Source: Nemertoderma westbladi
Lineage: Eukaryota > Animalia > Xenacoelomorpha
Length of the DNA stretch: 64,000 nt
Assembly (NCBI GenBank): GCA_032718475.1
Contig: JAUCBJ010006790.1
Span: 672 to 64,671 of the forward strand
Direction of reading: 5' to 3'
The position numbers were made by a program, and so were the translations under genes. This document shows, in pieces, positions 24,340 through 48,511 of the stretch. Below the pieces are notes generated by a model. The model was not told the origin of the DNA. It saw nothing but the letters and a program-made list of their open reading frames with translations, and searched no databases. Each line of letters starts with the position of its first letter. Position 1 is the first letter of the stretch.

Positions 24340-24725
24340 GTTTATTTTGACTACGTACTAACCCCCAAAATATCCATGCCCCATTTTAATACTTTACCCC
24401 CAAACAATGCCCTTTTAGAACACTATCAATAGTTGTTTTGTTGTTTTGACTACTGTATTATCCCCCAAAATATCCATGCCCCATTTTAATACTTTACCCC
24501 CAAACAATGCCCTTTTAGAACACTATCAATAGTTGTTTTGTTGTTTTGACTACTGTATTATCCCCCAAAATATCCATGCCCCATTTTAATACTTTACCCC
24601 CAAACAATGCCCTTTTAGAACACTATCAATAGTTGTTTTGTTGTTTTGACTACTGTATTATCCCCCAAAATATCCATGCCCCATTTTAATACTTTACCCC
24701 CAAACAATGCCCTTTTAGAACACTA
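24340..24725. repeat. 100-bp tandem repeat (~3.8 copies)
   Basis: CACTA recurs at 24421, 24521, 24621 and 24721 with identical intervening sequence. Confidence 0.95.
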
Positions 24726-25450
24726 GGGAATCTCTGGTCAGAATGTATGTAACAACAAAATTATTACCCTGTCATTTTGTTATTTACCCGGTTAATTTGA
24801 CCCTCAGAAATGTTATTTAACCCTTGGAACAAGTTATAAACCCTCGGCTTCGCCTCGGGATTTATAACTCGTTCCTCGGGTTAAATAACATTTCTTCGGG
24901 CCGTAGTTGTTCTGTTGGCACCATTGTGTTTGTGGAAGCAGTAAAAAATTATCGGTTGTTTAACTGCGAAGCTGAACTCAATTTATTAGTTAGGATATTT
25001 AGGTTTAGCCGGCCATGGTTTTTTGAATCGCTCAAGTTAGAGAGAGAGTTAGAGAGAGTCGCAACCCGAAGATGTAGCCACGCGCTAGTGGATACATATA
25101 ATATTTGAAATTAAAATTACGTTGATTAGAGCTATATATATAAAATTAGAAATATTCGGGCGGCAAGTATATTTTGAATATTTTGTATTAGATTCAAGGT
25201 TATTTTGTGCTATACCGGTATTTAATGCTATATAGTAGCTATATAATAATATTTTTGTTTAAATATTGTGCTAGTATTTGCTATAACTATATACCCCGGG
25301 GCCATTAAATTCACAATATTGCATTGCGAATTTATTTGACATTTGGACCAACTGATTATTTGACAAATAATTTGACCGTATTTCGGTTAAATTATATTTA
25401 TATCTCGAACTTTGCGAGATTTTTGCCGGAAGGCAAACATTATTTAGACT

Positions 25451-27394
25451 ATGAGTGTCTCAGACAAGGAGGCACTAGAGGACAGCTATGAGACGGCGGC
25501 TGGACCGCCGACTGACGATAGCGTCAATATTACTGTTGACGACAATGCCGACTATGACGACGCAGCGAGTGACGCTGACGTAAGTGAACAGGAGGACGAG
25601 ACAGTGACTAGTGAGGAAGAACAGCAACCTCAAGTAATAGTATTAGGATCCCCTACCGCTACTGTAAGGAAGGACTGTACGGCAGCCCGGACAGAGGTGA
25701 GTGATAGGGAGGATAGTGTAGCAGAAGCGAGAGCCCGGAGCCCGGTTTCCAGACCTGTGGGTATGGTAAGTGCCGTGGTCCCAACGGCTGTAAGGAGTAC
25801 CCGTAGTTCCCGAAATAATCCTTCAAGTCCACCGAGTGTAAGTCAGGTAAGTGATAGAGAACTTGATATCGCGATAAAGAAGAAACTTCGCGCGCATGCC
25901 GGACATATAACTCGGACGGCGGACAAGGTAAGGAAAATGTTAGCTGACTCAGCGAACATCGGGAGGGTAGAGTTAGTAGAGGTTAGAAGAGGATATAATT
26001 CAGCGTTATTCAAGCAGACGGAGGAGCTTGCAGTCCTAGCAAAGAAGGCAGTAGAGTCTCAGTCGAGCGACGTAGCAACGAGGATTTACGACAGGGTTTT
26101 AGCAGCCTTGTTAGAGCACCGCGAGTTATCGGAGCGATTCCGACGAGTTAGGACGGAGAACTGGCTGCTATGGGCATCACAAGCGCAGGCGACTCAGGTG
26201 AGTGACGCTGAGTTGAGAGACTTAGTGGAGCGAGAAGAGATCCAAGATAAGGAAGAGCGCCGTTATCAGAGGGAAGTTACTAGCTGGCTGATGCAGAATG
26301 GAGTGGTTGTACCAGGCCAGGTGCTACCGACGACGGAGAACATTCAACAGAGGACGTTGACTCCACCCGACGATGCATCCAGAGACAGCGGCGATTCCCA
26401 GGTTAGTCACGCGCGAGGGAAAGTTATATGTGCTAGATCCCTTGTTTCTCACAACTCGGCGGAGGAGAGAAGACGCCGACTAGACGAACAGCAGGCGGAA
26501 GTTTTGCGTGCATCGGAAGCACGGAAGGAAGCTGAGCGGGAACGGGAGCGCGCACGTAAGTTAGACGCAAAGTTGCGGGAGTTGGAAGACAAAGGTAAGC
26601 GTGAGCAAGCGGAACGCGAACGAAAAGAACGCGAACTCCAACTGAAACGCGAACAGAAAGAACGCGAACTCCAACTTGAACGCGAACGCGAAGCGAAGAA
26701 ACGCGAACTCCAACTCGAACGCGATCAGGAAGCGAAGAAACGCGAACTCCAACTCGAACGCGAACAGAAAGAACACGAACTCGAACTTGAACGCGAACGC
26801 AAGGAACGCGAACTCGAGATTGAGAAGGAGCGACAGATGTTGTATGAAGAAAAGGCGCGACTGGAAGAAGAGAGCGTAGCGAGACGAGTGAGGGAAGAAG
26901 AAGAACGTAAACTGGCGCAGTTGGAAAGTGCGAGATTAAGTTTAGAGAGCGAAGAACGGACTAGGAAGGCGAACGAAATCGCCGAGAAGGGGATGCGAAT
27001 GATCGAAGAATGTGGGGCGAGTGTAGGGACAGAGTTGCGAGAACTGTTCGCACTGCAGAAGGCCGAACAGGAAGCGAGAACTCCGGCTATACGCGAGTCG
27101 ACGACGACCAGAATTCCTATACCCGGTCCAGCTATTACGAGTACACGGATCGCTAAACCGTTCTCTACATATCGCACGCCAGTTGGTATTAGTGCTTCAC
27201 CTATCGCGCAGGATCTACGTCATCGGAACACCGCACCACTATACACCGAACGAGAGAATGAAGAGTTTAGAGAAACTCCGACGGGACGAGTACTTGGCGA
27301 ACCGCCAAGTTTGGTTTGCGCGGTTGAACTTAGCGAACGCTATTTCGAACGCATTGGACATCTTGAGGACGGTGAATCTACCTCATCATGGTGA
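25451..27394 (+). CDS. gag: BEL/Pao Gag N-terminal part (acidic and long coiled-coil region)
   Basis: Long ORF upstream of the knuckles and pol. E/R/K-rich repeats (RELQLERE) at ~26600-26830. Confidence 0.75.
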   Translation: MSVSDKEALEDSYETAAGPPTDDSVNITVDDNADYDDAASDADVSEQEDETVTSEEEQQPQVIVLGSPTATVRKDCTAARTEVSDREDSVAEARARSPVSRPVGMVSAVVPTAVRSTRSSRNNPSSPPSVSQVSDRELDIAIKKKLRAHAGHITRTADKVRKMLADSANIGRVELVEVRRGYNSALFKQTEELAVLAKKAVESQSSDVATRIYDRVLAALLEHRELSERFRRVRTENWLLWASQAQATQVSDAELRDLVEREEIQDKEERRYQREVTSWLMQNGVVVPGQVLPTTENIQQRTLTPPDDASRDSGDSQVSHARGKVICARSLVSHNSAEERRRRLDEQQAEVLRASEARKEAERERERARKLDAKLRELEDKGKREQAERERKERELQLKREQKERELQLEREREAKKRELQLERDQEAKKRELQLEREQKEHELELERERKERELEIEKERQMLYEEKARLEEESVARRVREEEERKLAQLESARLSLESEERTRKANEIAEKGMRMIEECGASVGTELRELFALQKAEQEARTPAIRESTTTRIPIPGPAITSTRIAKPFSTYRTPVGISASPIAQDLRHRNTAPLYTERENEEFRETPTGRVLGEPPSLVCAVELSERYFERIGHLEDGESTSSW

Positions 27395-30300
27395 TCACGC
27401 CGAAGTTTTGAAAAGCGTAATAAGACGTCTAAACATGCGTTACAGACAGAAATGGCGCAAATTAGAGAATAAGTTGGAGGGCCAAGGTAAAGTATTGACA
27501 CTTCAGCATATTCATGACATGATAGCCACAGACGCAGTAGCAGAGATGAAATCAAACTTCTCAGAAGAGAATATGAGGGAGTCTAAACCTGTTACCGGTA
27601 AGTCTATGGTAAGTTTTGACGATGACAGGACCACTGTGACATTTAACTCAGTAGACAGATATAATTCGAGTACCCCAGCCTTTAGATCAGACTCGCGAGT
27701 ATGGTCAGGTGAGTGGTTAGATAGACCTAGGTTAAAGCAACAGGAGTTGCCGGATGGATTTGTAGGTTGCCAATACTGTTTACTAAAGGAGGTAAGATCT
27801 GACGACCATAAGTTAGATAGTTGCAGACGGTTCAAAGAATTAAATTCGGAACAGAGAAGAGTTCAAGTGCGGACGTTGGACACCTGTTGGGCATGTCTTG
27901 CGCCAGGCCATGTAAGGCGGCAGTGCCCGAACAGCAAGGACGGATGCATGGAATGCGGCAGACTACATCACAAGTTGCTACATGCGGATTTCCATACCCC
28001 AACGGACCGTTACTTACAGCGAAATCCTCAAAGGAAGGGGAGCAAAGAACCCGTATCGATAAGGAGGAATACGTACACTGGCATCCAAGACGATGGTTAC
28101 CAACCAGGTTCGTCGGATGAGGATGGCGAGTCGAGCGCAAGAGAGGTGACCTGCCAAGGTTTCACCGCGGATAGTTCATCAACCAGCGCGCGGACGTATT
28201 TATCATCGGCCACGTCGGAAATATTTAGCGTGATTCCGGTGAAACTCACTGGAGATAAGGGATCGAAACGAATATATGTGATGTTGGACACTGCGTCCAC
28301 ATTATCTTATATCGACGAGGAAGTGGCGAGAGCTGTTTCTAGCTTCCAGAACGCTGAGGAGATCCAAATAGAGTTGAAGTCTATGCATGGGGTAGGAGAC
28401 CTCAAGGGACACAGAATTTCGGTAGAACTAGACTCCCTACTTCCGAGAGACCAACATACTCGACAAGAACAGAAAGCTTTGCCATTGGACGGATTTAAGT
28501 GTCTAGCTATGAAGGGATTCGGCAGGCAGTTAGGTAAGGTGCCGCCGATGAGTCCCATAGCACAGGAGTATTTTGACAAGCTCAGGATACCCAGACACCA
28601 GGTAGGTTATAGGAATGTTTCTATGTTGATTGGTGCAGAACAGCTGATCGCACACCAGATATGGGAAACGAGACCAGCTGAGCCGCATGTCAATGGACCA
28701 CATGCCCATAGGACCATACTAGGTTGGTATACACGAGTACCCATGTCTTATGAGTTTACAGGTGGCGACAAGCCAATGAACAGATACGATGAATTACAGC
28801 CTATAATTCAACCACCGTTAGTAGAACCACCAGACATAGACGAGTTTAGGAGAACCTGTATTGACCACTATAGTGACTTTAGCGAGTCAGACGAGGAGTT
28901 GATTCCCGATAATGTTAGGTTGTCGGAACCACTTCATAATGACCGGACAGATAGTGAACCCGAGGACTACTGTTATCAGACCCGTGGGTCTGGTTCAGCG
29001 GCCCACGCTACCTATTTGACTAACGTTTTGACTTATACAGACATAGTGGAGGGTCAAGTGGCTAAATATCGAGACCTAGACATTTTCCAATACAGTGAGG
29101 AGGAATTACAAAAGGAATTGATACGCCAGGACCTCGAGACAGGAGCTAGAACCGTCGAATGGCTGGATAGGGACGCAATGGAACCCGGTGGATATGACCT
29201 AGCCATGTCTACTGATGAGAAACGGTCGTTGGAGATGATGGAAGATACCATACGTCTACTACCGACTGGACATTTTGAAGTTGGAATGTTGTGGCGTCGA
29301 CAACCACCTAAGTTGGAGAACAACTACAACTTAGCCTTGAAAAGATTGAACGGAGTAAGGGCTCGGTTGTTGAAGAATCCGGACATTAGGGAGAAGTATT
29401 GCGCCCAGATCAACAACTATTTCGCCAAGGGATTTGCTGGGAAGGTAGAGGACCCTGACTTAGTGACAGACCAGACTTATTACCTTCCACACCACTATGT
29501 GACTCACCCTGACAAGCCAGACAAAGTCCGAGTAGTCAACGACTGCGCAGCAGTCTATAGAGGTATGTCCCTGAATTCAGAGTTGATGGATGGTCCCAAC
29601 CTGAACAATTATTTGATTGGAATACTGTTGCGTTTTAGACAGCGGCGATTCGCATTTACTTGTGACATCGAGGCGATGTTCCACCAGGTAAGAGCATGTA
29701 AGGCAGACCAGGATAGCCTTCGCTTTCTCTGGTTTGAGAATGAAGACTTATCCGGCCCAGTGGTTACATACCAGATGTACGTTAGGATATTTGGCGCCCG
29801 CGATAGTCCAAATGGCACGCTGTTCGTTTTAAAGAAAACGGCAACAGCCCAGATTGGTAAGTATCCAGTAGAAGTAATCGAGTCTATATTGAGAAACTTC
29901 TATATGGACGACGGATTGGTGTCCAAGGACACAGCGGAACAAGCCATAGAAGTGGCTCACGGCCTACAGGAGTGCTTGGCTACAGGGGGTTTTCCTCTAA
30001 CCAAGTTCACTACGAACTCGGAGGCCCTATTAGAGTCGTTCCCGGTAAAGGATCGCGGGAGCGGAGACATAGAATTGGGGGTAGAACCAATCCCCATGGC
30101 GCGAGTACTGGGACTCGCTTGGAACCCGAACTCAGATAAGTTCCAGGTAAGCGTTAGATTTGAGCCCAGTAGCCCAGACAAAGTTTTGACTAAGAGAATT
30201 TGCTTATCGACATTGAGTAGACTATTTGACCCGATGAACTTTATCAGTCCGGTTATATTACAGGCACGAGCGTGCATGAGGAAAATTTGGTTGTCCGACT

Positions 30301-31355
30301 TAGAGTGGGACGAACCAATATCTCCTATACATGCAAAGCAGTGGAGGGAGTGGGAAGCCGAGTTGCATCTATTGAAAAATATAGATGTACCCCGTTCCTA
30401 CTTTCCGAATCAGCTGGTATTCCCAGCTGATTTAGAGCTCCACCTATTTAGTGACGCAAGTGACACCGGCTTTGGTATGGTAGCCTACCTTCGCCGAGAG
30501 GTAAGTCAGGACAAGTTTGAGACGGCTTTTGTGACTTCTAGATCAAAGACAATGCCGGTCAAATACATGACTGTCCCTCGTGCAGAGTTACAGGCGGCTG
30601 TAGTTTCGGTCGAGGTAAGTAAGCAAATAACTGAGGAGTTAGACACGACATTGACCTTATTCTATTGGACGGACGCATCCTTGGTGTTAGTATACATTGC
30701 GGCCGACAATATTGCACTAAAGACATTTGTGGCCAATAGACGCGCTCAGATCGTTGATTTTTCGACGAAGGAACAATGGAGACATTGTCCGGGAGTGTTG
30801 AACCCGGCCGACATAACTTCGAGAGGTGCAATGCCGGCGGAATTCTGTCAGGAAGAGTCGCAGGAGTTTTGGTTGCATGGACCTGATTTTCTAACGAGGA
30901 CACAGGAACATTGGCCAGAGCGACTAAAGATTGTGACCAATCCGATGCCTGAAGATGCAGAAGTCAAGGTGGAGAAAGTCTCTAAGTCGAAGTCTAAAGC
31001 CAAACTCAAGTCATTGGAGCGGCCTGAAAAGTCATTGGAGCGGCCTGAAGAGTCATTGGAGCGGCCTGAAGAGTCATTGGAGCGGCCCGGAGACCTGTCA
31101 GACCAACAGACTTACGTGACTACTAGGTCAGGAAGGGTAAGTTACGACGTAAAACCACCCTTACAGACTAGACGACAGTCACAGTTGGTAAGTGACGGAC
31201 AGAAAATGACCGACACAATGGATCCTTTGGTTTCCAAACCTGTGGGTTTTGATTCGAAACTTCCATTAGTTAGCGGACAACCGTCGCTGGCATTAGAGTC
31301 ATGCAGTATTTATGACAAATTACTAAATTCGTCTGCCTCTTGGCTGACAATTTGA
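27183..31355 (+). CDS. pol: BEL/Pao Gag C-terminus, protease, RT and RNase H
   Basis: Knuckle CWACLAPGHVRRQC, protease VMLDTAST, RT YYLPHH / DIEAMFHQV / FYMDDGL, RNase H LHLFSDAS...PRAELQAA...FYWTDA. Confidence 0.95.
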   Translation: MVLVLHLSRRIYVIGTPHHYTPNERMKSLEKLRRDEYLANRQVWFARLNLANAISNALDILRTVNLPHHGDHAEVLKSVIRRLNMRYRQKWRKLENKLEGQGKVLTLQHIHDMIATDAVAEMKSNFSEENMRESKPVTGKSMVSFDDDRTTVTFNSVDRYNSSTPAFRSDSRVWSGEWLDRPRLKQQELPDGFVGCQYCLLKEVRSDDHKLDSCRRFKELNSEQRRVQVRTLDTCWACLAPGHVRRQCPNSKDGCMECGRLHHKLLHADFHTPTDRYLQRNPQRKGSKEPVSIRRNTYTGIQDDGYQPGSSDEDGESSAREVTCQGFTADSSSTSARTYLSSATSEIFSVIPVKLTGDKGSKRIYVMLDTASTLSYIDEEVARAVSSFQNAEEIQIELKSMHGVGDLKGHRISVELDSLLPRDQHTRQEQKALPLDGFKCLAMKGFGRQLGKVPPMSPIAQEYFDKLRIPRHQVGYRNVSMLIGAEQLIAHQIWETRPAEPHVNGPHAHRTILGWYTRVPMSYEFTGGDKPMNRYDELQPIIQPPLVEPPDIDEFRRTCIDHYSDFSESDEELIPDNVRLSEPLHNDRTDSEPEDYCYQTRGSGSAAHATYLTNVLTYTDIVEGQVAKYRDLDIFQYSEEELQKELIRQDLETGARTVEWLDRDAMEPGGYDLAMSTDEKRSLEMMEDTIRLLPTGHFEVGMLWRRQPPKLENNYNLALKRLNGVRARLLKNPDIREKYCAQINNYFAKGFAGKVEDPDLVTDQTYYLPHHYVTHPDKPDKVRVVNDCAAVYRGMSLNSELMDGPNLNNYLIGILLRFRQRRFAFTCDIEAMFHQVRACKADQDSLRFLWFENEDLSGPVVTYQMYVRIFGARDSPNGTLFVLKKTATAQIGKYPVEVIESILRNFYMDDGLVSKDTAEQAIEVAHGLQECLATGGFPLTKFTTNSEALLESFPVKDRGSGDIELGVEPIPMARVLGLAWNPNSDKFQVSVRFEPSSPDKVLTKRICLSTLSRLFDPMNFISPVILQARACMRKIWLSDLEWDEPISPIHAKQWREWEAELHLLKNIDVPRSYFPNQLVFPADLELHLFSDASDTGFGMVAYLRREVSQDKFETAFVTSRSKTMPVKYMTVPRAELQAAVVSVEVSKQITEELDTTLTLFYWTDASLVLVYIAADNIALKTFVANRRAQIVDFSTKEQWRHCPGVLNPADITSRGAMPAEFCQEESQEFWLHGPDFLTRTQEHWPERLKIVTNPMPEDAEVKVEKVSKSKSKAKLKSLERPEKSLERPEESLERPEESLERPGDLSDQQTYVTTRSGRVSYDVKPPLQTRRQSQLVSDGQKMTDTMDPLVSKPVGFDSKLPLVSGQPSLALESCSIYDKLLNSSASWLTI
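31008..31088 (+). repeat. in-frame 21-bp tandem repeat (SLERPEE x ~4) in pol
   Basis: AGTCATTGGAGCGGCCTGAA tandem copies. Confidence 0.9.
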
Positions 31356-31415
31356 AAAAGAACTGCGTGGTTAAGCCGATACGTTTCGTACCTTTGTTTA
31401 AAACATTCGAAACAT

Positions 31416-32897
31416 TTGAGAGAACCATTGAGCACCAATAGTGAGCGAATTCGGAAATTGAAACAACCTCTGACAGAGGATGAGATTGATCAAGCGGAAT
31501 TAAAGCATTTGAAACATTATCAAATGTGTGCCTTCCCGAAAGAATTCCATCTATTATCGGCTCATCGACCAGTTCTCTATAAACCCCTTAGAAAATGGAG
31601 TCCATTAATCCATAAGGATTTAATTTGTCATAGATCGAGAATCCAGACTGTCGACATAAACTCACAGTTTCGGTTCCCAGTGATAATCCCTAGTCACCCA
31701 ATAGAATTGCAAAGAGCGATTCTATGGGATATACATAAGAGGTTGCATCACGCGGGAAAGTTACACTGTTTGTCGGCAGCGAGACAGCGATTCATTCTAT
31801 TGCAGCCAAGCAGGGCAGTTGGCACTATGTACGACGCCTGTCTGGTTTGCAAGAGAGTGAACGCCAGAGTATTGGAACAGGAGATGGCTGAACTCCCGGA
31901 AGCGAGAGTGCAGGCATATGACCCACCCTTTACGAATACAGGGGTGGACTGTTTTGGTCCGATTGAAGCAAAGAGTGGACGGCTGACCCACAAGCGATGG
32001 GGTCTGCTACTGACATGTATGGCGAGTAGAGCCATACATATCGAGCGTGTGGCAGACATGTCGACCAAATCTCTGCTCCTGGCCTTAAAGAGATTTATGG
32101 CCAGGAGAGGACTAGTAAAGGCGTTCTACTCTGACAAGGGTACAAACTTTGTCGGAGGGAATAGCGAGTTGAACGCGGCTCATAAAGCAGCACAGAATAA
32201 GGAAATTTCTGCAGCACTTTTGCCGCAACGAGTAGAATGGAGATTCAATACTCCTGAAAGTCCTTGGAGAGGAGGAAGTTGGGAGCGTTTAGTTCGCTCT
32301 GTAAAACAGGCCATTGCCAAAACATTGCCTGTGAACAAACAACTTACCGACGACGAACTGGTCACAGCTTTCATTGAAATCGAGCATACCCTAAACTCGA
32401 GGCCGATAGCTATGTTGCCAGACGGTGTTGCATTAACGCCGAATCATTTGCTAATGCAGAGTCCAGCATTTCTTGTGCCGGCATCAGAACCCATTAGTGC
32501 CGACCTATATAGTCGTAAAAGCTGGAAAGTAACACAGTTTGTGGCGTACACATTCTGGGAATATTGGCGGGAATACTATCTTCCCACCATATCCACCAGA
32601 ACAAAGTGGTACAAAACGGTTCGGAGTCTCCAAAAGGGAGATTACGTGTTGATAACCGAACCCATTGTCAAGAGAAAGTATTGGGAGACGGGAGTGATCT
32701 TGCACACACACCCAGACGTGCAAAACATAGTGCGCACAGTCACTGTGAAAATTAGATGCAAGTGTCCGCACCCAAAAAAGTGTAAAACTAATGGTTTACA
32801 CACCTTGGACCGACCGGTCCAAGATATTGTGTTATTAGAGGAGACACGTATCGAGACGGGAGATTATAATTTGTCTCCTGCCTCAAAACAGAGTTAG
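31416..32897 (+). CDS. BEL/Pao integrase (same frame as pol, behind a single TGA)
   Basis: HHCC (IHKRLHHAG...CLVC), GVDCFGP, YSDKGTNF, GGSWERLV, LTPNHLL and the C-terminal RPVQDIVLL motif. Confidence 0.93.
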   Translation: MREPLSTNSERIRKLKQPLTEDEIDQAELKHLKHYQMCAFPKEFHLLSAHRPVLYKPLRKWSPLIHKDLICHRSRIQTVDINSQFRFPVIIPSHPIELQRAILWDIHKRLHHAGKLHCLSAARQRFILLQPSRAVGTMYDACLVCKRVNARVLEQEMAELPEARVQAYDPPFTNTGVDCFGPIEAKSGRLTHKRWGLLLTCMASRAIHIERVADMSTKSLLLALKRFMARRGLVKAFYSDKGTNFVGGNSELNAAHKAAQNKEISAALLPQRVEWRFNTPESPWRGGSWERLVRSVKQAIAKTLPVNKQLTDDELVTAFIEIEHTLNSRPIAMLPDGVALTPNHLLMQSPAFLVPASEPISADLYSRKSWKVTQFVAYTFWEYWREYYLPTISTRTKWYKTVRSLQKGDYVLITEPIVKRKYWETGVILHTHPDVQNIVRTVTVKIRCKCPHPKKCKTNGLHTLDRPVQDIVLLEETRIETGDYNLSPASKQS

Positions 32898-33667
32898 TGC
32901 TGGACGCAACTCACTTCGTATGCATTCCTCGTATGCAAATACAAGGAAATGCATAGGAGCGGGGTTGTGGTGATTTGCGTTGAGTTTTGTCTGGTGGGTA
33001 TCAAAACAAAATTTTATTTTCAAAATTTTTGGAAAATTAGAAAATTTTAAAAAATTAAAAGTGAACCCAAGACAATTCCAGACGCTGTGTATAGACGCGT
33101 TTTAGAATTCGTCTATAGATAAACAGTAATTTGAAAAGTCGTGAAGCCTGGAAAATAGCATTTAGAAACCATGGTGACGGCTATATTACGTAGGAGTGTA
33201 AATTGAGTCTAGCAACTTCCACAGATTGGTGCCAACAGTGCAACTAAGGTGCTAAAGGTTAGTAGCACCAGAGGCGTACATGGACCCCACTCAGTAGTTT
33301 GCAGGATGTGTGATGTTCGATTATCAAACCTGTGGGTTTGGTATAGTCGAGTATTGTGGCTATAGTCCTTTCTAACTACTGTAGTTTAGTACGAGTAATG
33401 GGAGTAGTTTGGGCATCAAAAAGTGAGTTGGTCACGGCCAGTTTATCTCCAAAGTTTTTGCGCTATGCATGGGAATAGGTTAGAGGATAGTTAGTTAGGA
33501 AGAGACGGGATCTAGAGAGTCGAACCTGAACTGCTGGAAGGCGGGGGGGGGGGGGGGGGGTTCGGGAGGTCTGTCCTTCGGCGACATCTAACTGATTTAC
33601 CCACAGTGTAGTTGGTTACGTAACGGCACTTATTGGGATATATATATATGTATATACGCGTAACATA

Positions 33668-36600
33668 ATGGAGAGGGATATTAGAGCGCAACCGCGCAGA
33701 GGATTTACTGCCAGAGAGGAGGCGGAGCTACCATTCGCGCGACCAGGATGTAAAGACTCTAACGTTTACTACCATGGGCGGTCCGTGATGGAGCTGAACG
33801 GGAAGTACAAACCAAGTTATGATAAAGAATTACGGAGAGAAAGAATGAGAGCGTTGGGGGACCGGATGGAAGTCTTGCGGAGAGAGTATCGCACGCGGTA
33901 TCCCTACGACTTCGCTTTGGACGTGTGCGACATTAGCGCAGATCCGGACGAGGAAATCGCACGACTATACCATATGAATATGTATTTACGACATGAGGAG
34001 CCTCTACCTGCAGTCCGAGACCAGTTCGACGGAATGCATCTGTATCGGAGGACTCGAGGTGAGGATCAGGAGACGCTGAAAGTCTTCAGCGTGTACAAGC
34101 TCTTCTACAAGTGTGGTGAATGCATGAATAAACAGGACGTGGCGATTCCCGACCGATTAGACGAGCAACATCCGGAACCGATATTAACGCGATGTCCAGC
34201 TCACCAATTCCTTAGATACAACGAGGGAGGTTACCCGATGAGCAACCCGATGATCAGTATCGACTTCAGCAGAAAGCGACCTCCGAGACTCATTACGCCG
34301 ACCATTACGACATTAGATCCGTATACGGAGATTAAACCCTGTTCGACACCCAGTTTGATAGAGACGGCAGCAGCCATTTCGCTGTACCGAGCCTACAAGG
34401 ATCTAGAGGCGCGGCGCGAAGCGGCGCGGGACTCGGGTACCAAACCCGCGGGTTTGGAGCTCTCGAGTCCCTGGACTACGTTTACTTCACCTCACCGAAT
34501 GAGAAGCCTCACGCCTGAGCATCAGGACGACATAGACGCGTTGCGGCAGGAGGAGCGAGCGGCGAAGGCGAAAGAGTTATTTGAGAACAGGATAGCGGAG
34601 TATAATAAGACCGCGGATAGACATCAAGAGGAGACGAGGAGAGTGACCGGATTTGTTCCACAGGTCGTATCTCAACCCGGACCGGTGTATTATTCCGACG
34701 GCACCGAACCTGCGATATTAGTAGATCATCCGGAGTCGCGAGAAGCGATACGATTCTTGCCGATGGTAAGAATGGCGGACCATTGGAACGTTGACTGTCT
34801 ACGGGAAGTTTTATGCGCGAAGTTCTTGCGTGATGTCCCAATGCAGATCACAGATTATGACACGTTGGATAAGATTGGAGCTCCGGGGAAGGAGAGTAAG
34901 CTATTCGGATGGTTGGATAAGTACATCAAGGTATGGGTCGCGGTGGCTACATTCCCAGACGACGAGGAGGTAGACCAGATGTGGCTGAGGAGGAAGGGTT
35001 CTTATACCCGATATGATGACCACAAGGCTATCGAGCGCATGTGGACCCCATCAGACGAGATTCAGCGTCAGTGGAGGAAGACGGAGGAATCGCTGCAGGA
35101 TTGGAGGGTGATGTTCTACGACAATGAAGGAGGGTCCCATCAGGAATGTTTGACCAGCAAGTGTATTCAAATTCGTGCGGCCGATGGTGTGACTCATGTG
35201 TTTATGCGTGTGAGGGCGGATCGAGAGAGACCGGAGCCCATCATAACGACACAATATCGGAAAGGGAAGGATCCTAGGGAACAGATTTTGGAGGTATGCA
35301 GGCGAGGAGGTATGCACGGAGCGGAGCGTATCGACGCCAGGATGTTACCAAAGAAAGTTAGAGAGGCTATTCTCAACCAAGATTACGTCAAGGTGGGATC
35401 GGGAGTCCAGAGCGATTTGGAGAGCGACTTCAACGCCATGACTGATCTGGAAGATAGATTGCCGAGACCGTTTGTCGACACCAAGCTATTGTTGCTATGG
35501 GCACAGGATATTGGAATTTATAGGGAGTATCCCAACTCTGCCAAGACTGGTATGGGCTTTATAGCACACTTGTTGTATAATTGGGACTTTAAGTTAAAGA
35601 CGCAAAAGAAGTATGAGGAGGCGTATGGCGAATACAACACTCCACCGGGAGCGGAGTTCAAATCCCACTTCAAGCGGCAAGCGTTAGTGTATTGGAACAT
35701 TTGCGCGCCACCCCGTGCGTCGCTACAATATTATTTGGTGCTTGAGTCGAACACGGTGACTTGTTTATTAGCGGATATCGTTGCGCGAGTTTTGAAGTGT
35801 CATCCATTGGTATTTGGAGGAGATCAATACGTTCGCTCGAAAGGGGGAATCCAATCCGACGTGATGAAGCGTTTCTTAACCCCGTTCTTCAACCAATCGT
35901 TAGAGAATACGTCGATGATTAGGAGAGGATTAGCGATATTCGAAGGAGTATATCGACAGAACATCGGAGATTTGGGAGACCGACCGTCGATGGAATATCC
36001 GACGCCAGAAGCTTTGGAGAAGTGGTTCGGGAATCAAACCCGCGGGTTTGGTACTCCCTTCCACTCGGAGGCTGATAGACCTGTTAAGGAGGGCTGGCCG
36101 GAAACGTTAGTAGAGGTGTTCGGAGTAGATCTTCCGGTGGAGAAGACATATCCGAAACGAACGCGGGAGGAAATATTGGAGATAGAGGACAAGGGCGAGG
36201 ATGTTTACTTTGTTCCGGATCGACAACCGTTGACTGGAGAGGACGACATCGTATTAGACATTGGGAAGGAAGGAAGTGCGAAACCGATTGGAGACCTCAT
36301 ATACGAGAGGGCCTGGTTTCCACAAGCGCGTAGGTGCAAGTTGTGCGGCAGCACAAGGCACAATCTAAAGTCGTGCGACGCGGTAGTGGAGGCGGCACAT
36401 AAAGTCTGTCGTTGGTGTAATGAGACCGACCATTCGTTTCACACGTGCACCGTCTTCATTTCTCAATGTGGATATTGTGGGGTAAAGGGACATCGTAGCG
36501 CGAGATGTCAGCTGCGAGATGATTCCTTTCAAAACCATAGCGCTAACCTACTTCGTGAGATGTTAGACAAGTGGGAGAGTGTGGCGGATTACCATATTCA

Positions 36601-37108
36601 AGCGCAGATGCGTTGGTTACCATTTAAAGCGGGATATGGGTTTTGGGCGGTAGACCCATCGCATGTTGCGTACGAGCCATATCTACAATCGCTACCACAA
36701 TATCAGGAGCTCATCCTAACTGCTCAAGACCTTCCACAAAACACTGGAGTTATCGTAGTTCGAGAGTACTTCAGACAATTGAACATGGACAATAAGTACA
36801 CATGGAACTTCGTTGCTATTTGCGATCGCATCACGAAGGGTGTATTTACGGAGACTAGAAAAGTGGTACGCGCGCGAGGTGATTGGAGGATGGCGGCTAT
36901 ACAATACCGCAACGAATTCTTGTTGACTCATGTGCCAGTGGGTTCATTGACCGCCGAGAGGATACAGGAACAAAGGATCGCAGCGACCACAGCGACGACC
37001 GCTGGAGCTCAAGGCTCGCGGAAAGAACCAGGAGGAGGGGTCCAAGACAAGCGTCAAGTCAAGGACGATCACTACCATTCGATACCTAAAGAGGTGAGGT
37101 CTCTATAG
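33668..37108 (+). CDS. accessory ORF3 of element B: CxxC..CxxH N-terminal domain, DEDDy-like 3'-5' exonuclease, 3 CCHC zinc knuckles
   Basis: Intact 1146-aa ORF between pol and the 3' LTR. FYDNEG, KVGSGVQSD, FVDTKLL and YYLVLES resemble ExoI-III of WRN/EXD/Mut-7 nucleases. Knuckles CKLCGSTRHNLKSC, CRWCNETDHSFHTC and CGYCGVKGHRSARC. Confidence 0.8.
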   Translation: MERDIRAQPRRGFTAREEAELPFARPGCKDSNVYYHGRSVMELNGKYKPSYDKELRRERMRALGDRMEVLRREYRTRYPYDFALDVCDISADPDEEIARLYHMNMYLRHEEPLPAVRDQFDGMHLYRRTRGEDQETLKVFSVYKLFYKCGECMNKQDVAIPDRLDEQHPEPILTRCPAHQFLRYNEGGYPMSNPMISIDFSRKRPPRLITPTITTLDPYTEIKPCSTPSLIETAAAISLYRAYKDLEARREAARDSGTKPAGLELSSPWTTFTSPHRMRSLTPEHQDDIDALRQEERAAKAKELFENRIAEYNKTADRHQEETRRVTGFVPQVVSQPGPVYYSDGTEPAILVDHPESREAIRFLPMVRMADHWNVDCLREVLCAKFLRDVPMQITDYDTLDKIGAPGKESKLFGWLDKYIKVWVAVATFPDDEEVDQMWLRRKGSYTRYDDHKAIERMWTPSDEIQRQWRKTEESLQDWRVMFYDNEGGSHQECLTSKCIQIRAADGVTHVFMRVRADRERPEPIITTQYRKGKDPREQILEVCRRGGMHGAERIDARMLPKKVREAILNQDYVKVGSGVQSDLESDFNAMTDLEDRLPRPFVDTKLLLLWAQDIGIYREYPNSAKTGMGFIAHLLYNWDFKLKTQKKYEEAYGEYNTPPGAEFKSHFKRQALVYWNICAPPRASLQYYLVLESNTVTCLLADIVARVLKCHPLVFGGDQYVRSKGGIQSDVMKRFLTPFFNQSLENTSMIRRGLAIFEGVYRQNIGDLGDRPSMEYPTPEALEKWFGNQTRGFGTPFHSEADRPVKEGWPETLVEVFGVDLPVEKTYPKRTREEILEIEDKGEDVYFVPDRQPLTGEDDIVLDIGKEGSAKPIGDLIYERAWFPQARRCKLCGSTRHNLKSCDAVVEAAHKVCRWCNETDHSFHTCTVFISQCGYCGVKGHRSARCQLRDDSFQNHSANLLREMLDKWESVADYHIQAQMRWLPFKAGYGFWAVDPSHVAYEPYLQSLPQYQELILTAQDLPQNTGVIVVREYFRQLNMDNKYTWNFVAICDRITKGVFTETRKVVRARGDWRMAAIQYRNEFLLTHVPVGSLTAERIQEQRIAATTATTAGAQGSRKEPGGGVQDKRQVKDDHYHSIPKEVRSL

Positions 37109-37908
37109 GGGTGTCGAAAACAGGCGGCGGCGGACTCGTGAGGGTCTGGGGGCACGTTAAATTTGGTATATAGTGCAAGGGAGTCACTGAAGGCCCTCGT
37201 GTCTAGCGAACCATGAATTGCCATGGTGCCGTGGTTCCGTCTAGTCGGCATGTTGCCGTACTGCCAGTCCTGTACACAGTAGGGGTGGTGGCATGGCGTG
37301 ATTTGTGGTTCATGTGGTGTGAACTGTGATTTGTATGTGGGCGATCAGTGGCAGTTGCTTGGGGCTCGGATGGGTTTCCTTTGACCATCAGCTGTTCCGT
37401 TTTTTTGATACTATATGTTATTGTCTCCATGTTCAGCTGATTGGTTTTTGGGATTTGTTTGGGCCTTTGAGTTTTCTGTTGCTGTGGGTACGTGAGTACA
37501 CGTGATTGTATGTATGGCCACTGCGAGTGAGTGTGGGAAACCTTGCCAGTTGGCTCAGTCGCCGCTGGTATTAGTAGGACCATATTTTACTGCGCCCTAG
37601 CATACTTTGTGCACACAAAGTTATTTTGCCCTGACGGCAAAATAAGGTACTCTCGACTCTCATGTTCTCTCTAGTCGATACAACTAGTCCCTCTCGATTT
37701 TGACACCGATTTTGTCTTTCCCGATTATGTCCTCTGTGTGTGCATGGTATGTGTCCAATTTGTGTACTTGATATTGTGAACATCTGTTGAGTACACGTGT
37801 ACAGTGACTGGTAAGTGGTTACTTGTTCAGTAGCTTTTGAGCTACAGACAGTATTGTTTTTTCAGGTGAAAACGAGTCAAAATTCCATGTTGGGTAGCGC
37901 AAGCCCAC

Positions 37909-38517
37909 ATGGGACAAGACCGTCGGTTAGGCCCAAGGGCGACCTTGGTGCTCGATCGCTATCGACTGGTCCACCTGCCGGTTGACTCTCTGAGTTGGCT
38001 CAATGTACAGTCAGGCCACAGTAAGTTGACAGTAGCCGACCATCTGGCTACACGTTCGACGAGCTGTGCCGGTGTGATCGGGGAATTGAAAATTGAACCC
38101 GGGAAGCATCGGGCCATCCCCCGGCCCGGTCTGATAATAACATCAGTCGGACTGGCCCCAGGGGTGGTGGAAAGGTGTCCGCCTCGTGGGTGCGCCTCGG
38201 GGAGGAGCCCAGAAGGACACAAGCGTATAGAAGCGCAACGATTGCAGCGTAAGGCGCAGGGAGCGTCGGAGAAGGCGCGAGCGCAACTGCATAAGGAAGA
38301 GTTGGCGGAAGCGACCACGGGAGCGCGACAATTGGGACGAGGCCGAGGGAGAAGTACCAGCCGAGAATCTGTCGGGGCTGAGGGAACGTCGTCGCCGGTT
38401 CCGGGGAGTGACGCCTCACGGACGCCGTCAACGGAGTCGACTGGAGGTAGATTAGTGTATCTGGGAAGGGGGCGGAAGAGAGGAGCGAGCCCAAAGAACC
38501 CAGGAGCGGGTCGATAA
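37909..38517 (+). CDS. possible small basic, RG-rich accessory ORF/exon of B
   Basis: 202-aa ORF with GRGRGR and GRGRKRG, preceded by acceptor-like TTTTTTTCAG (~37856-37865). No recognisable domain. Confidence 0.4.
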   Translation: MGQDRRLGPRATLVLDRYRLVHLPVDSLSWLNVQSGHSKLTVADHLATRSTSCAGVIGELKIEPGKHRAIPRPGLIITSVGLAPGVVERCPPRGCASGRSPEGHKRIEAQRLQRKAQGASEKARAQLHKEELAEATTGARQLGRGRGRSTSRESVGAEGTSSPVPGSDASRTPSTESTGGRLVYLGRGRKRGASPKNPGAGR

Positions 38518-39010
38518 TACATTATAGCACAGGGCGACAGACTCTAGATATATACATCATCGTCGCTCTGATGTATGTTGTAGCATTTGGAAATCTTCGA
38601 CTAGACTCGTATACACTAGTTGAGCTATTTGAATTTATATTATGAAAGAGGCGAAGGAAGTGATTGGGGAGACAAACCTGCGGGTTTGGCTTACTCCTTT
38701 CACTTGCCCTATCAAATTTTTATATATTTGATTTTGTATGTAGTAATCATTATGTAGTAGAACGAAAGAGAAACAATATTTTGTAAATTTAATTTGTATG
38801 TAATAATCGTTAAACAGTGAGAGAGATAATATTTGTAAATTTAATTTGTATGTAATTCATTATGCAATATCTATAGCAATATTTGTAAATAGTAGGACCT
38901 ATAGTATCAAGTATTTAGATTGGTTGGAAGAAATTTATTTTGTTTTGTATACATCACCTTATACTCTTCTACAATTGGAGGGAAACATTGTATGATTTCC
39001 CTTGGAGCGG

Positions 39011-41204
39011 TGTTACGGTATATGGCGCTGTATCCATATTATTAGTCATCATGCAGTATGTAATATTAGTCCGTTATGCAGTATGCAATATTAGTCCGTT
39101 ATACTGTACGTAATATTAGTCCATTGTGCAGCATGATATTTTAGATAAGGCATAATAACGCAGTGGTATTTAGGTAGGGAAATCAAAACGCCCATATATT
39201 TGAAACCATCCATTTTGTATAGTATGTAGCCCTACCTACGTAATTTTGTATTAGGATATATGTAGATAGTTCCAGGGTAGCGAGTTTATTCGGACCCTGG
39301 ATTTTGTGCTTGCTGATATTAGTTTGATAGGGCTAGCATATAGGGACGCCGTCCTGGCCATTCAGCAGCCAGAGACGTGAACCATTACCATATATGGTAA
39401 TAATTTGAGCAATAGGGCTACAATCCGGCCTCCTTATTGGATTAACTGCTTCCAGGTTGGTCTAATGCTAGCATGGACTGGAGAGCCAATAGGAGAGCGA
39501 TTGAGTCACCCTATTGAATCATCCCATCCGGATCACCTATAAATTGGCGGTGTGCCGGTAGAGCCTATCAATCGATTCAACCTTCACTGCTGTTGTACTT
39601 GCTGAGCTGTCTCTATTCAATTTTGACGGATTTTAGAGTATTTTTGCAATTTGATTAATTTCTTGAAATGATTTGCTAGTGCGATTACTCTTGCTTGTGT
39701 TTCTCAATTAATTCCTTCGATTACTGCTAATTACAACTGAACTATGATTTCTACTTTTGATTAATGGTTCTATGTGATTCTTTCCTGCGCAATAATCCTA
39801 AGGGATTTCTGAGACTGTCAGACTTTGTGATTTGCATGCGCCGCTACGGTAGCTATTAGCGTAATGGAGGGCTAAGGCGCCAGCGGGCGGTGGGCACATC
39901 GGGGGGTTGGGCGACTAAGGGAGAGCGGAGGATTCAAAGCGAGCAACGCTGGCATGGGGTCACCGTTGCGGTCGGGAAGTTAACGCTGTGGTACGCAGAC
40001 CAATCGCCGGTACGGTAATTAGGGGGCTGATGATCCAGGTTTCGTCTCTATTTAGTATTAGGGGGGCAGGAATCAGGTTAGTTAGGAGTCCTATATGTAC
40101 CCGGGAGAGGCCTGCACGTATCATAACGTTTCGAACGTTGAGCGTGTAGTACGAATAGTGAGTCGCATAATTGTGGGCTATACAGTAGTTAACTGCATAA
40201 TTGCGAACTGTGATTGCTGACGCTGATTGGTGTGTTACTGAAGTGTGCCTATGATTGTGAATGTTTAGGTAGGCGCTCTTTTCTCTTTGATTGATTTCTA
40301 TTTCTTAGTTACAACAATTAGTTACTGATTAGGTCAAAGTAATACGGCAATTTAGGCTATTACTAGCGAAACCTGTTGCGTGATAAATTAGAATTACGTA
40401 TTCTGGAACTCTTAGTAATTAGTACGCTGTTAAATATTTGTGACTGTAATTGATTAGTAAAATTAAGAATTAGTACGCAGCATAGCGGAGAGTAGCTAAA
40501 GTAATAATTAAGAGTACTGTAAACTATTCGCGCTGAGCGGTTATTTGCATTAGCGGACAATCAGCTAGAACGCACTATTCGGTACGCACGAAACGCTAGT
40601 GATTTGCTGGCCTAAAGCCAGCTGCAGGCAATTTTAGACCCAGAGTGGTACTATCCACGAGAGACAATTACTGTACCATTTTTGATATTTTAAATATTCT
40701 CGCATTCACACATTACGTTAGAGAAACCCCCAGTATTCGCGATTAGAAAAGACGTAGGTAATAGCGTGCTTTAATAGTGATAGAATTAGGCGTAAGAATA
40801 CTCTGAGTGCAAGGCCTCTCGCACTCGTCTTAAGTAAGCTTAGGGAGCCGACTCGGGTTTATTGTTTTGGTTATTCCTGCGTGGCTCATAGATTCGAACA
40901 GTTAGCTCTCTATTGAGCAATCGGTAGAGAAAGGAACAAGCGATTTTGCAGGAGTTGTGTAAAATTAGTAAATATATTAGCGGACGGCAGATTAGCGCCA
41001 TCCAACGGTAAGTAGCGGTTTTGTATTTAGCAACCTTTACAATTTAGTAATATCACGCTCCTGATCCCCTTTACTTAACAGTAGAGCAGTCTTTGTGTCT
41101 TATTGGTTAGGCGAGAGCTCATTAGGTTGGCAGAAGGATATTAACGGGTATTGGTCTGTTCAACAGTTCTGCTGTTAGTATAGAGGTCGCGGTTGTTTAT
41201 CAGT
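39011..41204 (+). repeat. 3' LTR of element B (truncated)
   Basis: Follows PPT-like GGAGCGG and matches 18831-21024. Ends abruptly at the junction with the leader of A. Confidence 0.8.
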
Positions 41205-42194
41205 AGGGATAAACTTGGGGATATGAATGTTGCGAATAATCGCATAAACTCTGAATAATAAATATTACGCTACGCACACAGACTACTCAAACAAAATGCA
41301 GACCAAATACTGACAGACTACTATCAAGCCTAAACAAACTACGGTATATGCAGACTCCGAAATGGTTAGTTAGTATGCGTTCTAACCGAGTAGTACGACT
41401 TATTCTTTCAGAGGGGGTTTACCTCACAGCACTGGAAGCCCCTACGTTCCTAACGGGCACTTTATCGGACATACACTCTACACACAACGCAATCCTTCAG
41501 ACCTAACAACAGCCAGGCAAAATCCAGCCTACAAATTATCTAAATAAGAAATATTACGCTACCCGTACAGACTACATAAACAAAATACAGACCAAACGCT
41601 GGCAGACTACTATCAAGCCTAAATAAACTACAGTATATGCAGACTCCGAAATGGTTAGTTAGTATGCGTTCTAATCTAGTAGTACGACTTATTCTTTCAA
41701 AGGGGGTTTACCTCACAGCACTTGAAGCCCCTACGTTCCTAACTAGCACTTTATCGGACAGATGCTCTACACTACACACACTGCAATCCATTCAGACTTA
41801 ACAACAGTCAGACAACTATCCAGCCTACAAATTATCTGTACAATCTGGGCAGGCTTACACGGCCTTCTACTCAATATCAACTTACAGGCAAATAAAACTA
41901 ACAGAAATAAGTAAACTATACAAAGGAATGAGGGGTGATCAATCCCTAATCCCCTAGCAGCCTACAATATACAATATCACAATCGAAATAGTACTGCTGT
42001 ACCTGTACTGTTGTAAGTACCGGTCCGGGTGATCAGGCAGTCAGGCCTACTGGTCACCGGTCGACCGGTACTTTCGACGACTCGATTGCTTACGCCGCAA
42101 TCAGAAGTTTAACAAACTGTTATTGTTCTTACCAGAACAATATTAAACTGTATTTATTGCCTACACTGCAATCAAGAATTTTACAAACTGTTAT

Positions 42195-43408
42195 TGTTCG
42201 CGCTTTTAAGACCTTTGGCAGTTTAACCCGCCAAATCTATATGTCTTCTAGGTTATAAATCTACTTTAGCCTAGGACAAGTATTGAACACCTATAATAAT
42301 TCTAACATTAGCCGAAGCCAGTCTGTGCGCGACCATTCACCCGCTGGATATACCCGGGAGACTGGATTCGGATGCTTTAATTTGATTGCGGTGCAGGCCT
42401 ACCGTACTATTCGATTGATCATTAATATATAATCTCTGACAAATATTATTCACTTTCGGGAAATATTAGAAGTTCCTTTAGGACGTGGCGCTCTATCTAT
42501 TTAAACAGAGCTATGACTTACACTATACACAACGGTATGTCTTATAGATCACCAAAGTGCATTCTTTAGGAAATGCTTTGTTACTCGGTCAAGCACACAC
42601 AGACTATTGCACACAACTGCACACTGAATTGCCGATATTCACTGATTTTAATCATATATAAAGAGAATAACAACCGACATTTGTAGGGCCTATTAAGTAG
42701 CATTGAACTCATTACAAACCACGATAATGTATGTCGCAAATTGTTATATGTAACCGGTCTCTCTAACCTTAGTGTATCAAGAAGATTGGGGTTTCGGATC
42801 GTTATCAATATTCTTCCCAATAATAATATGTAAACGAACGATACAATTAACAACACAGTAAATAGCAGTAAATAATGCGGCGAAAAGCAGTTTACGTCAG
42901 GGTGCTTAATCAGGTGCCTGACAAGCAAGAGTACTTAACCAAAATAACAGTTTGATGATCTTATAATTAAAGACGCTCTAATGTTAGAAAACATTCCACG
43001 GCCGGTGTTCTTAGGCGTGGGGGAAACGTCAGTACTGAATCATGGGATTCTGCTGTACAGCTTTTACACAAAGGGAAAATCTCTGATTGGTCGAACTGAC
43101 GTGGACACTGCTGATAGATGTCGTCATTTGAGCTGAGCAGAACAAAGAACCAAGGCTCCGTGCAGAGGCTCCACGTGTACAGCTCAGCTATTAGCTGTCG
43201 TCATAGTAACTACACTGTTTCAAGAGTATTTCGGCTTTTGCGTCATAGAATTGCTAATTATGTCCGCTAAAGTACACATACAGAATGAATGGCCTTTTAT
43301 GTCCACTAAAACACTGGTACAGTAAGGAAACGGCTTTTATGTCCGTTAAAACACCTACAGAGTACTTTACGGGGAAAATAACCAGCTAATTCCGCAAAAG
43401 CTTTTACA
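42195..43408 (-). repeat. complete 5' LTR of element A (~1.2 kb)
   Basis: TGTT...TACA ends with TSD on the right. Adjacent 41203-42194 is homologous to the leader of C (57970-58652). Confidence 0.9.
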
Positions 43409-44361
43409 GTAATGGTGGACAATTCAAGCATGGCCCTGAATCGCCTTAAAGGAATCCTGAAAAGGCTTAATACCCAACCTGACCTTAAGGACCAATATAA
43501 TGAAGTAATGGCTGGGTACTTAAAAAACGGATTGACAGAGTTGGTACCAGATGAAGAGATTAAAGGATCCTCCAGAACATACTACTTACCAACACACTAC
43601 GTGATAGAAAAGCGTAAGGCTGGTAAGATGAGAGTCGTTAATGACGCCACGGCCTCCTTCCAAGGTGAATCCCTACACAGCCAGTTATACACCGGACCAA
43701 ACATCTATAGCAACCTGGTTGGCGTATTGCTTAGATTCAGGCTCAGAACAAGGTGGCTTTTACATGCGACATCAAATCTATGTTTCATCAGGTACGCACA
43801 CTAGACAGAGACTCTGACAGCTTGCGGATACTATGGACCAACAAGACACTTAATATCTCAGAAATAAACAGCCTCACGCTGAATGATGTTGACATCTTAA
43901 TAATGGTGGTACGTATCTTCAGTGCAAAAGACTCGCCAGTCGTGTGCAGTGATATGATTAAGAAAACTGCGGATATGCTGGAAGATAAATATGATCCCAG
44001 TGAAATCAGTCGTCACGCCAACTGGAAGAAATCGCAAGCGTTGGCAGCACACTGGTGGAGGGTATGGTTGCACGAATTTCTGATAACACTCAGAACCCGC
44101 CGGAAATGGAATCACATTCACCGAATCATCGCGGTTGGAGATATGGTGCTTGTCAAAGATGAACTGAAAGATCGTGTTCATTGGCCTGTGGCGCGTGTTA
44201 CCAAGATTTTCCCCGGAAAAGTCGGTCTCACCCGCACCGTGATGATCCAAACATCAAAGGGCCACTACGATCGCCCGATCCAAGCTTTATGTTTACTAGA
44301 AGCAGTTTGTGATGACGTTGTAGAGTGCCCTGCCAAGGGCCACTACGATCACCCAATCTAA
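43409..44361 (+). pseudogene. BEL/Pao element H, 3' part: RT start fused by deletion to integrase C-terminus
   Basis: DNSSMALNRL, YYLPTHYV and DIKSMFHQV, then directly WWRVWLHEFL...RPIQALCLL. Confidence 0.85.
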
Positions 44362-44790
44362 ACTTTATATTTACTAGAAGCAGTCGGTGATGACGTTGTA
44401 GAGTACCCTGAAAAGAAACACTACGACCACCAAATCCAGACTTTGTGTCCTCTCAAGGATGACCGTAAAATAAAGTAAAGGAGTCAATCAAATAAACTGA
44501 GTATTCACATACTATAATGTTGATGAAAATAATGGTGATTTAATGACAACGATTATGGACTTTCTTTGACACCCTGTTACCACGCACCTGATTTGGAATT
44601 CATTTTCCTCGTGTGATGTATGAAAAGTCCAGCGTCACCCTGCGGAATGCATCTGCGCAGACTGCAGGGTGGTTTATGTTGACGATGTACAGCTGGATTT
44701 AATGGAAATTTGTTGAATGGATATGTTAACCTCAAAAATATTTATTATGGATTTCATTGTAATCATCGCGTTGGTTTTCACTCTAGGTGC

Positions 44791-45016
44791 GGGCCCTGGA
44801 GCAGTGTAACGAGCCCGCTGCTCTCGTTGAGTTTGTCTTCCTTCCTACGTGTTGTTTTGTTCCCGATGGTTTTCTTTCTGGGGATGGCCCTGGAGCGGTG
44901 TAACGAGCCCGCTGCCATCTCTAGTTTGATTTCTGTCCTTCATGTTATCATTGTTCCGTTGAGTCTTCATACCGGGGATGGCCCTGGAGCGGTGTAACGA
45001 GCCCACTGCCATTTCC
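44791..45016 (+). repeat. three ~35-40-bp direct repeats with dissimilar spacers (period ~94 bp)
   Basis: GGCCCTGGAGCGGTGTAACGAGCCCGCTG (with single changes) at ~44792, ~44886 and ~44980. Confidence 0.85.
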
Positions 45017-48433: not shown

Positions 48434-48511
48434 CCGCTCCCAGAAAATGGGATTTAATTCTATAAAATATAAAAAATCACAGTTTCTAAAATATAAAAAT
48501 ACTCTAAACAG

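Follow-up and report, generated by a model that had tools for sequence, protein, structure and literature searches.

The Juno and Vesta long terminal repeat (LTR) retrotransposons of bdelloid rotifers are Gypsy-type elements. An exonuclease-like domain is also said to have been described in nematode Cer elements, by Malik et al. in 2000 or in a related paper. A third open reading frame (ORF3) encoding a DEDDy exonuclease is known from Juno and Vesta and from Athena/Terminon retroelements (PMC5408684, PMC6431247). Such exonucleases were previously unreported in retrotransposons according to the first of these papers, and an opinion paper citing the rotifer work counts the DnaQ-like domain among the familiar accessory domains of LTR elements (PMC6338049). 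For BEL/Pao elements, the available text of PMC554778 and PMC9094657 describes only env-type extras, and that of a survey of 62 genomes, which bounded elements at 2-15 kb, contains no word starting with 'nuclease' (PMC3118150). Here we analyse a 64,000-nucleotide (nt) stretch of contig JAUCBJ010006790.1 from Nemertoderma westbladi (the window; all coordinates are window positions), in which a BEL/Pao element carries an ORF3 of 1146 amino acids (aa) in the env position. Our analysis confirms that this ORF3 is a real, selected accessory gene of a BEL/Pao family, combining a predicted exonuclease with zinc knuckles. With this case, exonuclease cargo reaches a second superfamily of LTR elements, and a protein family that escapes Pfam comes into view. 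A first-pass annotation of the window had pointed to DEDDy frames in bdelloid LTR elements, as PMC5408684 documents, and had named no such architecture in BEL/Pao. Our searches, which covered listings and passages of openly available text, likewise turned up no DEDDy ORF3 in BEL/Pao or joined to this knuckle module (a prior report elsewhere is possible).

ORF3 lies on the plus strand at 33668-37108, uninterrupted as annotated: the frame is open from 33596 to 37108 and its first ATG is at 33668. It begins 770 nt past the integrase stop. The annotation had set it between the integrase and the 3′ LTR; the position is right, but about 1.9 kb separates the end of ORF3 from the purine tract and the LTR. 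The usual hydropathy threshold for a membrane segment is 1.6. As the highest 19-residue mean in ORF3 is 1.46, no membrane segment is evident, in agreement with the annotation, and by this measure ORF3 lacks an Env-type transmembrane anchor. The annotated motifs were all recovered, FYDNEG at 35114, KVGSGVQSD at 35390 and QYYLVLES at 35726, together with three Cx2Cx4Hx4C (CCHC) knuckles at 36335, 36407 and 36467. Along the protein run a putative CxxC...CxxH metal site in the unassigned N-terminal region (residues 149-179, 34112-34204), a predicted DEDDy-type 3′-5′ exonuclease domain (residues 453-718, 35024-35821), the three knuckles (residues 890-947, 36335-36508) and a conserved tail (approximately 36545-36790).

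Searches of Pfam and of PDB sequences with ORF3 alone gave nothing significant, and the ESM Atlas held no match for residues 1-300; an ESM Atlas cluster labelled PF01612 (0.91, 157 shared features) was kept as a lead and not used as support. Compared with solved structures, a profile of the exonuclease alignment matched EXD2 (E 2.1e-6) and WRN (E 0.004), the family profile also matched the knuckle region of trypanosome RNase D (E 2.4e-5), and the knuckle profile matched Lin28 and retroviral nucleocapsids. An AlphaFold model of the domain built from eight sequences reached a predicted local distance difference test score (pLDDT) of 67 and a predicted template modelling score of 0.69; a single-sequence model (pLDDT 33) was discarded. 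The best Foldseek match of the retained model was EXD2 (E 5e-5), and all 12 matches listed, out of 16 with E ≤ 0.001, were DEDD nucleases, 11 of them EXD2. The VIA structural search ranked the exonuclease domain of Aedes Nibbler first (Z 12.0, 188 residues aligned, root-mean-square deviation 3.8), with RNase D and WRN (both Z 10.7), EXD1 (10.2), trypanosome RNase D (9.9) and Egalitarian (9.9) among the others; the 50 structural matches listed are, we take it, DnaQ-type nucleases or polymerases bearing such domains. A viral fold library returned giant-virus and phage exonucleases at 9-17% identity, with no donor among them. Profile, AlphaFold model, Foldseek and VIA agree on a DnaQ/RNase D fold, in keeping with the annotated assignment to the WRN/EXD/Nibbler-type DEDDy nucleases. 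The acidic set comprises D485 (35120) and E487 (35126) in the D-x-E of ExoI, D583 (35414) in ExoII, and Y689 (35732) and E693 (35744) in ExoIII, where the last acidic position is indeed the Glu that had been annotated.

Seven relatives came from a full HMMER search (1.84 billion representatives, E ≤ 0.001), and one further cluster member and one further relative were later added to them. The seven have 514-727 aa, carry no informative names and are 17-21% identical to ORF3, and all share one layout, in which a variable linker joins an exonuclease-like region to a block of three knuckles, followed by the conserved tail. Pfam returned weak knuckle matches in some of them only, and the exonuclease-linker-knuckle-tail family is not covered by that database. 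A profile built from the seven alone recovered ORF3 among 1469 window frames at E 4.7e-21, over a match spanning ExoII-ExoIII only; the resemblance is thus beyond chance. The ExoI motif, assigned from a MAFFT alignment and from the first beta strand of the model, which ends at those residues, keeps its D-x-E in five of the six relatives covering the site, and the ExoII Asp is kept in six of seven. At ExoIII, five of six covering relatives have Asp and one (P0002) has Glu, the residue of ORF3 (Y689-x3-E693). P0001 lacks the ExoI Glu, the ExoII Asp and ExoIII and retains two full knuckle-plus-tail modules; P0005 lacks the ExoIII Tyr; and the ExoI motif absent from P0006 lies in an upstream frame of its contig, L002. 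On the basis of the conserved acidic residues, the ORF3 domain is likely to be catalytically active.

Beyond these proteins, word-index searches with ORF3 400-1000 and with a family alignment gave no matches, and one with P0004 470-620 returned only P0004 itself and P0009. P0004 was not found in metagenome contigs, and another alignment had no match in viral contigs. At the loci of two relatives, L001 and L002, whose contigs measure 2.5-3.7 kb, no pol was found. L001 (79-2025, 3384-3683), the locus of P0001, shows a purine run before TGT at 2064 and an acidic frame reaching the contig end, which could be an LTR and the start of gag; a likeness of that frame to the window gag was rejected (E 3, no Pfam match).

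The N-terminal 450 residues of ORF3 are missing from the relatives, and their sole match is a decayed relic in the window itself (49101-49631, minus strand). It follows pol in element C, a second BEL element of divergent sequence. The relic keeps the CxxC...CxxH region and matches the ORF3 N-terminal region at E 5e-4 within the window; the exonuclease part was not detected in it. A decayed paralog of the exonuclease domain lies at 60919-61700 (plus strand), with 36% identity over 58 aa in the ExoII region (E 5e-9), and no pol was found beside it within the window. An N-terminal likeness to a relic near 60600 and to upstream frames of element C was rejected as no better than shuffles.

The element carrying ORF3 measures about 19.1 kb once a nested insert is subtracted, and its coding features all lie on the plus strand. 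The N-terminal part of gag (25451-27394) has an acidic start and a coiled coil. A second frame (27027-31355) encodes the gag C-terminus and pol, with protease LDTAS at 28284, reverse transcriptase YMDD at 29901 and RNase H FSDAS at 30447, and the integrase part of pol (31356-32897) contains an H2C2 finger, the catalytic core motifs and DUF5641. Motif order and the Pao-specific Pfam families PF05380 (E 3e-39) and PF18701 (E 1e-17) give the pol order protease-reverse transcriptase-RNase H-integrase. Gag bears a triple Cys-His box (Cx2Cx9Hx4C, Cx2Cx4Hx4C and Cx2Cx3HHx2LH at 27768-27983), a trait of BEL/Pao (Belpaoviridae) elements (PMC554778). The gag frame, the pol frame with PF05380, the box, LDTAS, YMDD and FSDAS, and the integrase with DUF5641 together identify the host element as BEL/Pao.

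Six sequencing runs contain the stretch or part of it, and we compared contigs of four over 21025-41000 and of two over 34950-36650. Variant sites were listed from contigs at least 85% alike and at a share of at least 15%; related copies are not independent, and since all contigs are short, depth does not give copy number. Over 34950-36650 of ORF3, 30 of 33 variant sites are silent third positions, where the spectrum of observed changes predicts 10.7 (binomial p 4e-12; ratio of residue-changing to silent variation, pN/pS, about 0.05). At the three residue-changing sites, none of them catalytic or in a knuckle, the window copy differs from nearly all contigs. No insertion or deletion reached a 15% share over the same interval, in which two deletions occur at low depth. 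ORF3 is under strong purifying selection across a multi-copy family; in gag, nine of the ten best-supported variant sites of a longer list are silent. Diverged contigs covering 32043-33029 and 33449-33813 bridge the integrase-spacer junction and the spacer-ORF3 start, and so place ORF3 beside the same spacer in other copies. Neither of the two outcomes that would have spoken against the annotation, a fold unlike that of DnaQ/RNase D or an ORF3 missing from other copies, was seen. Depth over ORF3 is about 400-490 times that over the nested insert and 0.41-0.45 of that over pol, and in some copies several joints remove parts of ORF3.

These comparisons also change the weight of one earlier argument, that ORF3 had stayed intact despite lesions in gag and pol. 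In the window copy, gag does have a frame break near 27304-27323 and pol an in-frame stop at 31353-31355, but both lesions are absent from the contigs that cover them and seem private to this copy. An intact ORF3 beside them therefore says little, and selection is attested by the excess of silent sites. Separately, run X4, labelled as another organism (B), contains fragments of pol and ORF3 (27323-39093) that are about 98% identical to the window copy and of low depth; they may come from a relative, from a mixed sample or from a transfer. None of the listed runs is marked as RNA; X4 may be one, but it carries no weight on expression.

What does such a protein do for the element? The annotation had offered anti-piRNA counter-defence, RNA trimming or proofreading, and our results favour none of these decisively. 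We tentatively propose, with a little less than even confidence, that it trims RNA 3′ ends and thereby blunts host silencing of the element. ORF3 would be made from spliced or internally promoted RNA. The 770-nt spacer ahead of it (32898-33667, plus strand) has a G run and, at 32956, the purine-tract-like GGAGCGGGG. It also offers CTAAC at 33588 as a candidate branch point and CAG at 33604-33606 as an acceptor, and these two suggest a spliced message. By analogy with trypanosome RNase D, the knuckles would grip single-stranded RNA near its 3′ end, and the DEDDy domain would trim that end; in the trypanosome enzyme the CCHC fingers bind RNA, raise cleavage and grip the U tails of guide RNAs, and their removal cuts both binding and cleavage (PMC7797062). 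The targets might be, again at somewhat below even confidence, precursors of small guide RNAs or repressive 3′ tails carried by the RNA of the element itself, and trimming would weaken host silencing; LINE-1, for comparison, is restricted by TUT4/7 uridylation (PMC6191937). That ORF3 belongs to the element is supported by element C, where a second BEL family has an ORF3 relic in the same slot. A purine-tract-like motif just 3′ of the integrase and upstream of ORF3 was seen in both elements (32956-32964, and 51694 on the minus strand in element C), and may be a fossil or an internal primer of the plus strand.

A rather less likely possibility is that ORF3 helps replication within the particle, the knuckles bringing the nuclease together with genomic RNA, where it trims primers or the 3′ ends of cDNA or proofreads for the reverse transcriptase. 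At about 19.1 kb, beyond the 15-kb bound for full-length BEL/Pao elements (PMC3118150), the element has an unusually long genome to copy. The knuckle profile finds Lin28 and the retroviral nucleocapsids, polymerase proofreading domains and WRN appear at Z 10-11.8, selection looks as strong as in gag with its nine of ten silent sites, and the DEDDy domains of Dada transposons have been proposed to process DNA 3′ ends (PMC3706591). However, ORF3 is a separate frame 770 nt past pol and outside the polyprotein, a triple Cys-His box is already present in Gag, and silent sites diverge freely among copies whose contigs are 85-90% alike.

It is improbable that ORF3 is a non-catalytic RNA adaptor, in which fold and knuckles bind element RNA for localization or packaging without cutting. 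Egalitarian, which is inactive, is among the structural matches (Z 9.9), as is EXD1 (Z 10.2). The latter is inactive too (PMC5408684). The ExoIII Glu of ORF3, the loss of the acidic set in P0001 alongside two retained knuckle sets and the missing ExoIII Tyr of P0005 would also fit an adaptor, but the acidic residues are kept across relatives at 17-21% identity, which is hard to explain without catalysis. More improbable still is that ORF3 is a separate nested or passenger gene, or one that serves the host in an antiviral or self-limiting role: a nested insert is indeed present in the window copy, the BEL elements of the region are nested and rearranged, the relatives' short loci L001 and L002 are without pol, no single contig spans pol and ORF3, and a host benefit of accessory domains has been argued (PMC6338049), but the depth of ORF3 is of the same order as that of pol and hundreds of times that of the insert, overlapping diverged contigs connect integrase, spacer and ORF3, the element C relic occupies the same slot, and none of the 15 joints listed, out of 83, removes ORF3 cleanly.

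Several observations weigh against an RNA-trimming, silencing-blunting ORF3. The template modelling scores of the top Foldseek rows are low, at 0.27-0.33 on the query. The top structural ranks hold RNases as well as DNases inside a span of 1.5 Z, with an apicoplast polymerase at 11.8 and a diDNase at 11.6, so the fold does not choose RNA. The ExoIII Asp is replaced by Glu, as in one of six relatives, and the acidic residues lost from P0001 mean that some family members persist without them. The silent-site excess was counted on contigs at least 85% alike and on sites with at least a 15% share, whose kinship makes them non-independent. The summed depth of ORF3, at 0.41-0.45 of that of pol, may mean that many copies lack ORF3, although depth does not give copy number. 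Mature PIWI-interacting RNAs (piRNAs) are 2′-O-methylated at their 3′ ends and resist such trimming.

Exonuclease cargo bears on the question whether animal retrotransposons encode a counter-defence of their own against silencing by small RNAs; the DEDDy ORF3s of rotifers had given no sign of selection. The N. westbladi ORF3 can be assayed directly, since it is under strong purifying selection, its active site is defined and its putative RNA-binding module has an analogue of solved structure. Elements of about 19 kb fall outside the 2-15 kb filter of the major BEL/Pao survey and may therefore have been overlooked. We consider it unlikely, but worth stating, that ORF3 represents an undescribed and widespread clade of giant BEL/Pao elements in which env has been replaced by an enzyme uniting exonuclease and triple knuckles, whose task is to strip U tails added by the host or to trim the precursors of piRNAs. 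If either activity were true, ORF3 would be a retrotransposon-encoded enzymatic suppressor of animal small-RNA defence.

The ends of the element are complex. A 2240-bp direct repeat flanks it on the plus strand (18785-21024 and 38965-41204, 3 differences), giving two LTRs with a purine tract preceding the 3′ LTR. The left copy has its own purine tract, GGAGCGG, at 18824, and its LTR proper likely starts with TGT at 18831; the right copy has its tract at 39004 and its LTR from 39011, and at 41203 it runs directly into another BEL family's leader. The sequence GGAGCGGTGT occurs five times in the window (0.12 expected), two of the five within the ORF3-bearing element, and we infer that in this and two further BEL families it indicates where the purine tract lies and the LTR begins. 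Because the left repeat also carries GGAGCGGTGT, it is either of 3′ type or rearranged, and the LTR identity of 99.87% was rejected as a measure of element age. No clear target-site duplication or tRNA primer site was seen by eye at the element ends, which are rearranged and both adjoin the other BEL family, and our searches returned no tRNA or Rfam match. Between ORF3 and the LTR, a stop-to-stop frame of 215 codons (37870-38517, plus strand) is basic and without a family match, and is a candidate only. In run X6, depth over 37009-38340 is far above that of the rest of the element.

The leader is interrupted by a 3237-bp insert foreign to the BEL element (21667-24903, plus strand), with an intact Crypton-like tyrosine recombinase gene of 479 codons (DUF3504, 22299-23738), subterminal inverted repeats of about 54 bp and a 100-bp tandem repeat. 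Contigs of runs X3, X4 and X6 join 21666 to 24904, the empty site, and depth over the insert is about 70, compared with tens of thousands across the element, and low in three runs. Joining contigs and low depth together identify the recombinase gene in the leader as a nested insert. The ORF3-bearing element is itself enclosed by two LTRs, 99% identical to each other, that belong to another BEL family (17707-18793, 42194-43283). A third BEL element has its pol (16308-17770, 43382-44361) interrupted by that pair, so the nest is three levels deep, and its junctions are rearranged. Past the end of the third element's integrase, 44763-45027 holds three copies of a unit of about 94 bp, two of the three with the exact purine-tract-plus-TGT motif. 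Element C (48433-58653, minus strand) is decayed and divergent, with a DUF1759 gag and a largely deleted pol, and a long interspersed nuclear element fragment lies near 46978-47364 within one LTR.

Set beside known systems, as far as their published descriptions go, ORF3 shares features with several. Like the ORF3s of rotifer Juno, Vesta and Athena, compared here by description only, it is a DEDDy exonuclease in the env position with no membrane segment and an altered acidic motif. That motif is DEED in rotifers (PMC5408684) and D-E-D-E in the window; the knuckle passages of the rotifer paper concern gag and pol, with none described for ORF3, whereas the window ORF3 has three; and rotifer ORF3 variation is near neutral in the section on env-like and GDSL-like frames (PMC5408684), in contrast to the strong purifying selection found here. 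The belpaoviruses Cer7, Cer13, Tas and Atlas are likewise BEL/Pao elements with extra coding sequence past the integrase (PMC9094657, PMC554778), but theirs is described as a fusion glycoprotein with membrane segments, and ORF3 shows neither trait. Dada DNA transposons of Laccaria and Ectocarpus combine a DEDDy domain with a CCHC finger in one transposon-borne protein (PMC3706591), although there the domain sits inside a DDE transposase, whereas ORF3 is a separate frame of a retroelement. Among cellular enzymes, EXD2 and WRN give the best profile matches and Nibbler and EXD2 the best structural ones, and EXD2, Nibbler/Mut-7 and WRN all have the same motif spacing, but identity in structural alignments is 10-15% and their other domains are absent from ORF3. 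In overall architecture, ORF3 resembles Trypanosoma brucei RNase D (TbRND; PDB 7C42), a mitochondrial cellular enzyme in which a DEDD exonuclease is followed, after a 28-residue linker, by four tandem CCHC fingers (PMC7797062). In ORF3, by contrast, the knuckles number three and lie about 170 residues from the exonuclease domain, a region of 450 residues precedes that domain, and the protein has a conserved tail; the two architectures are probably convergent.

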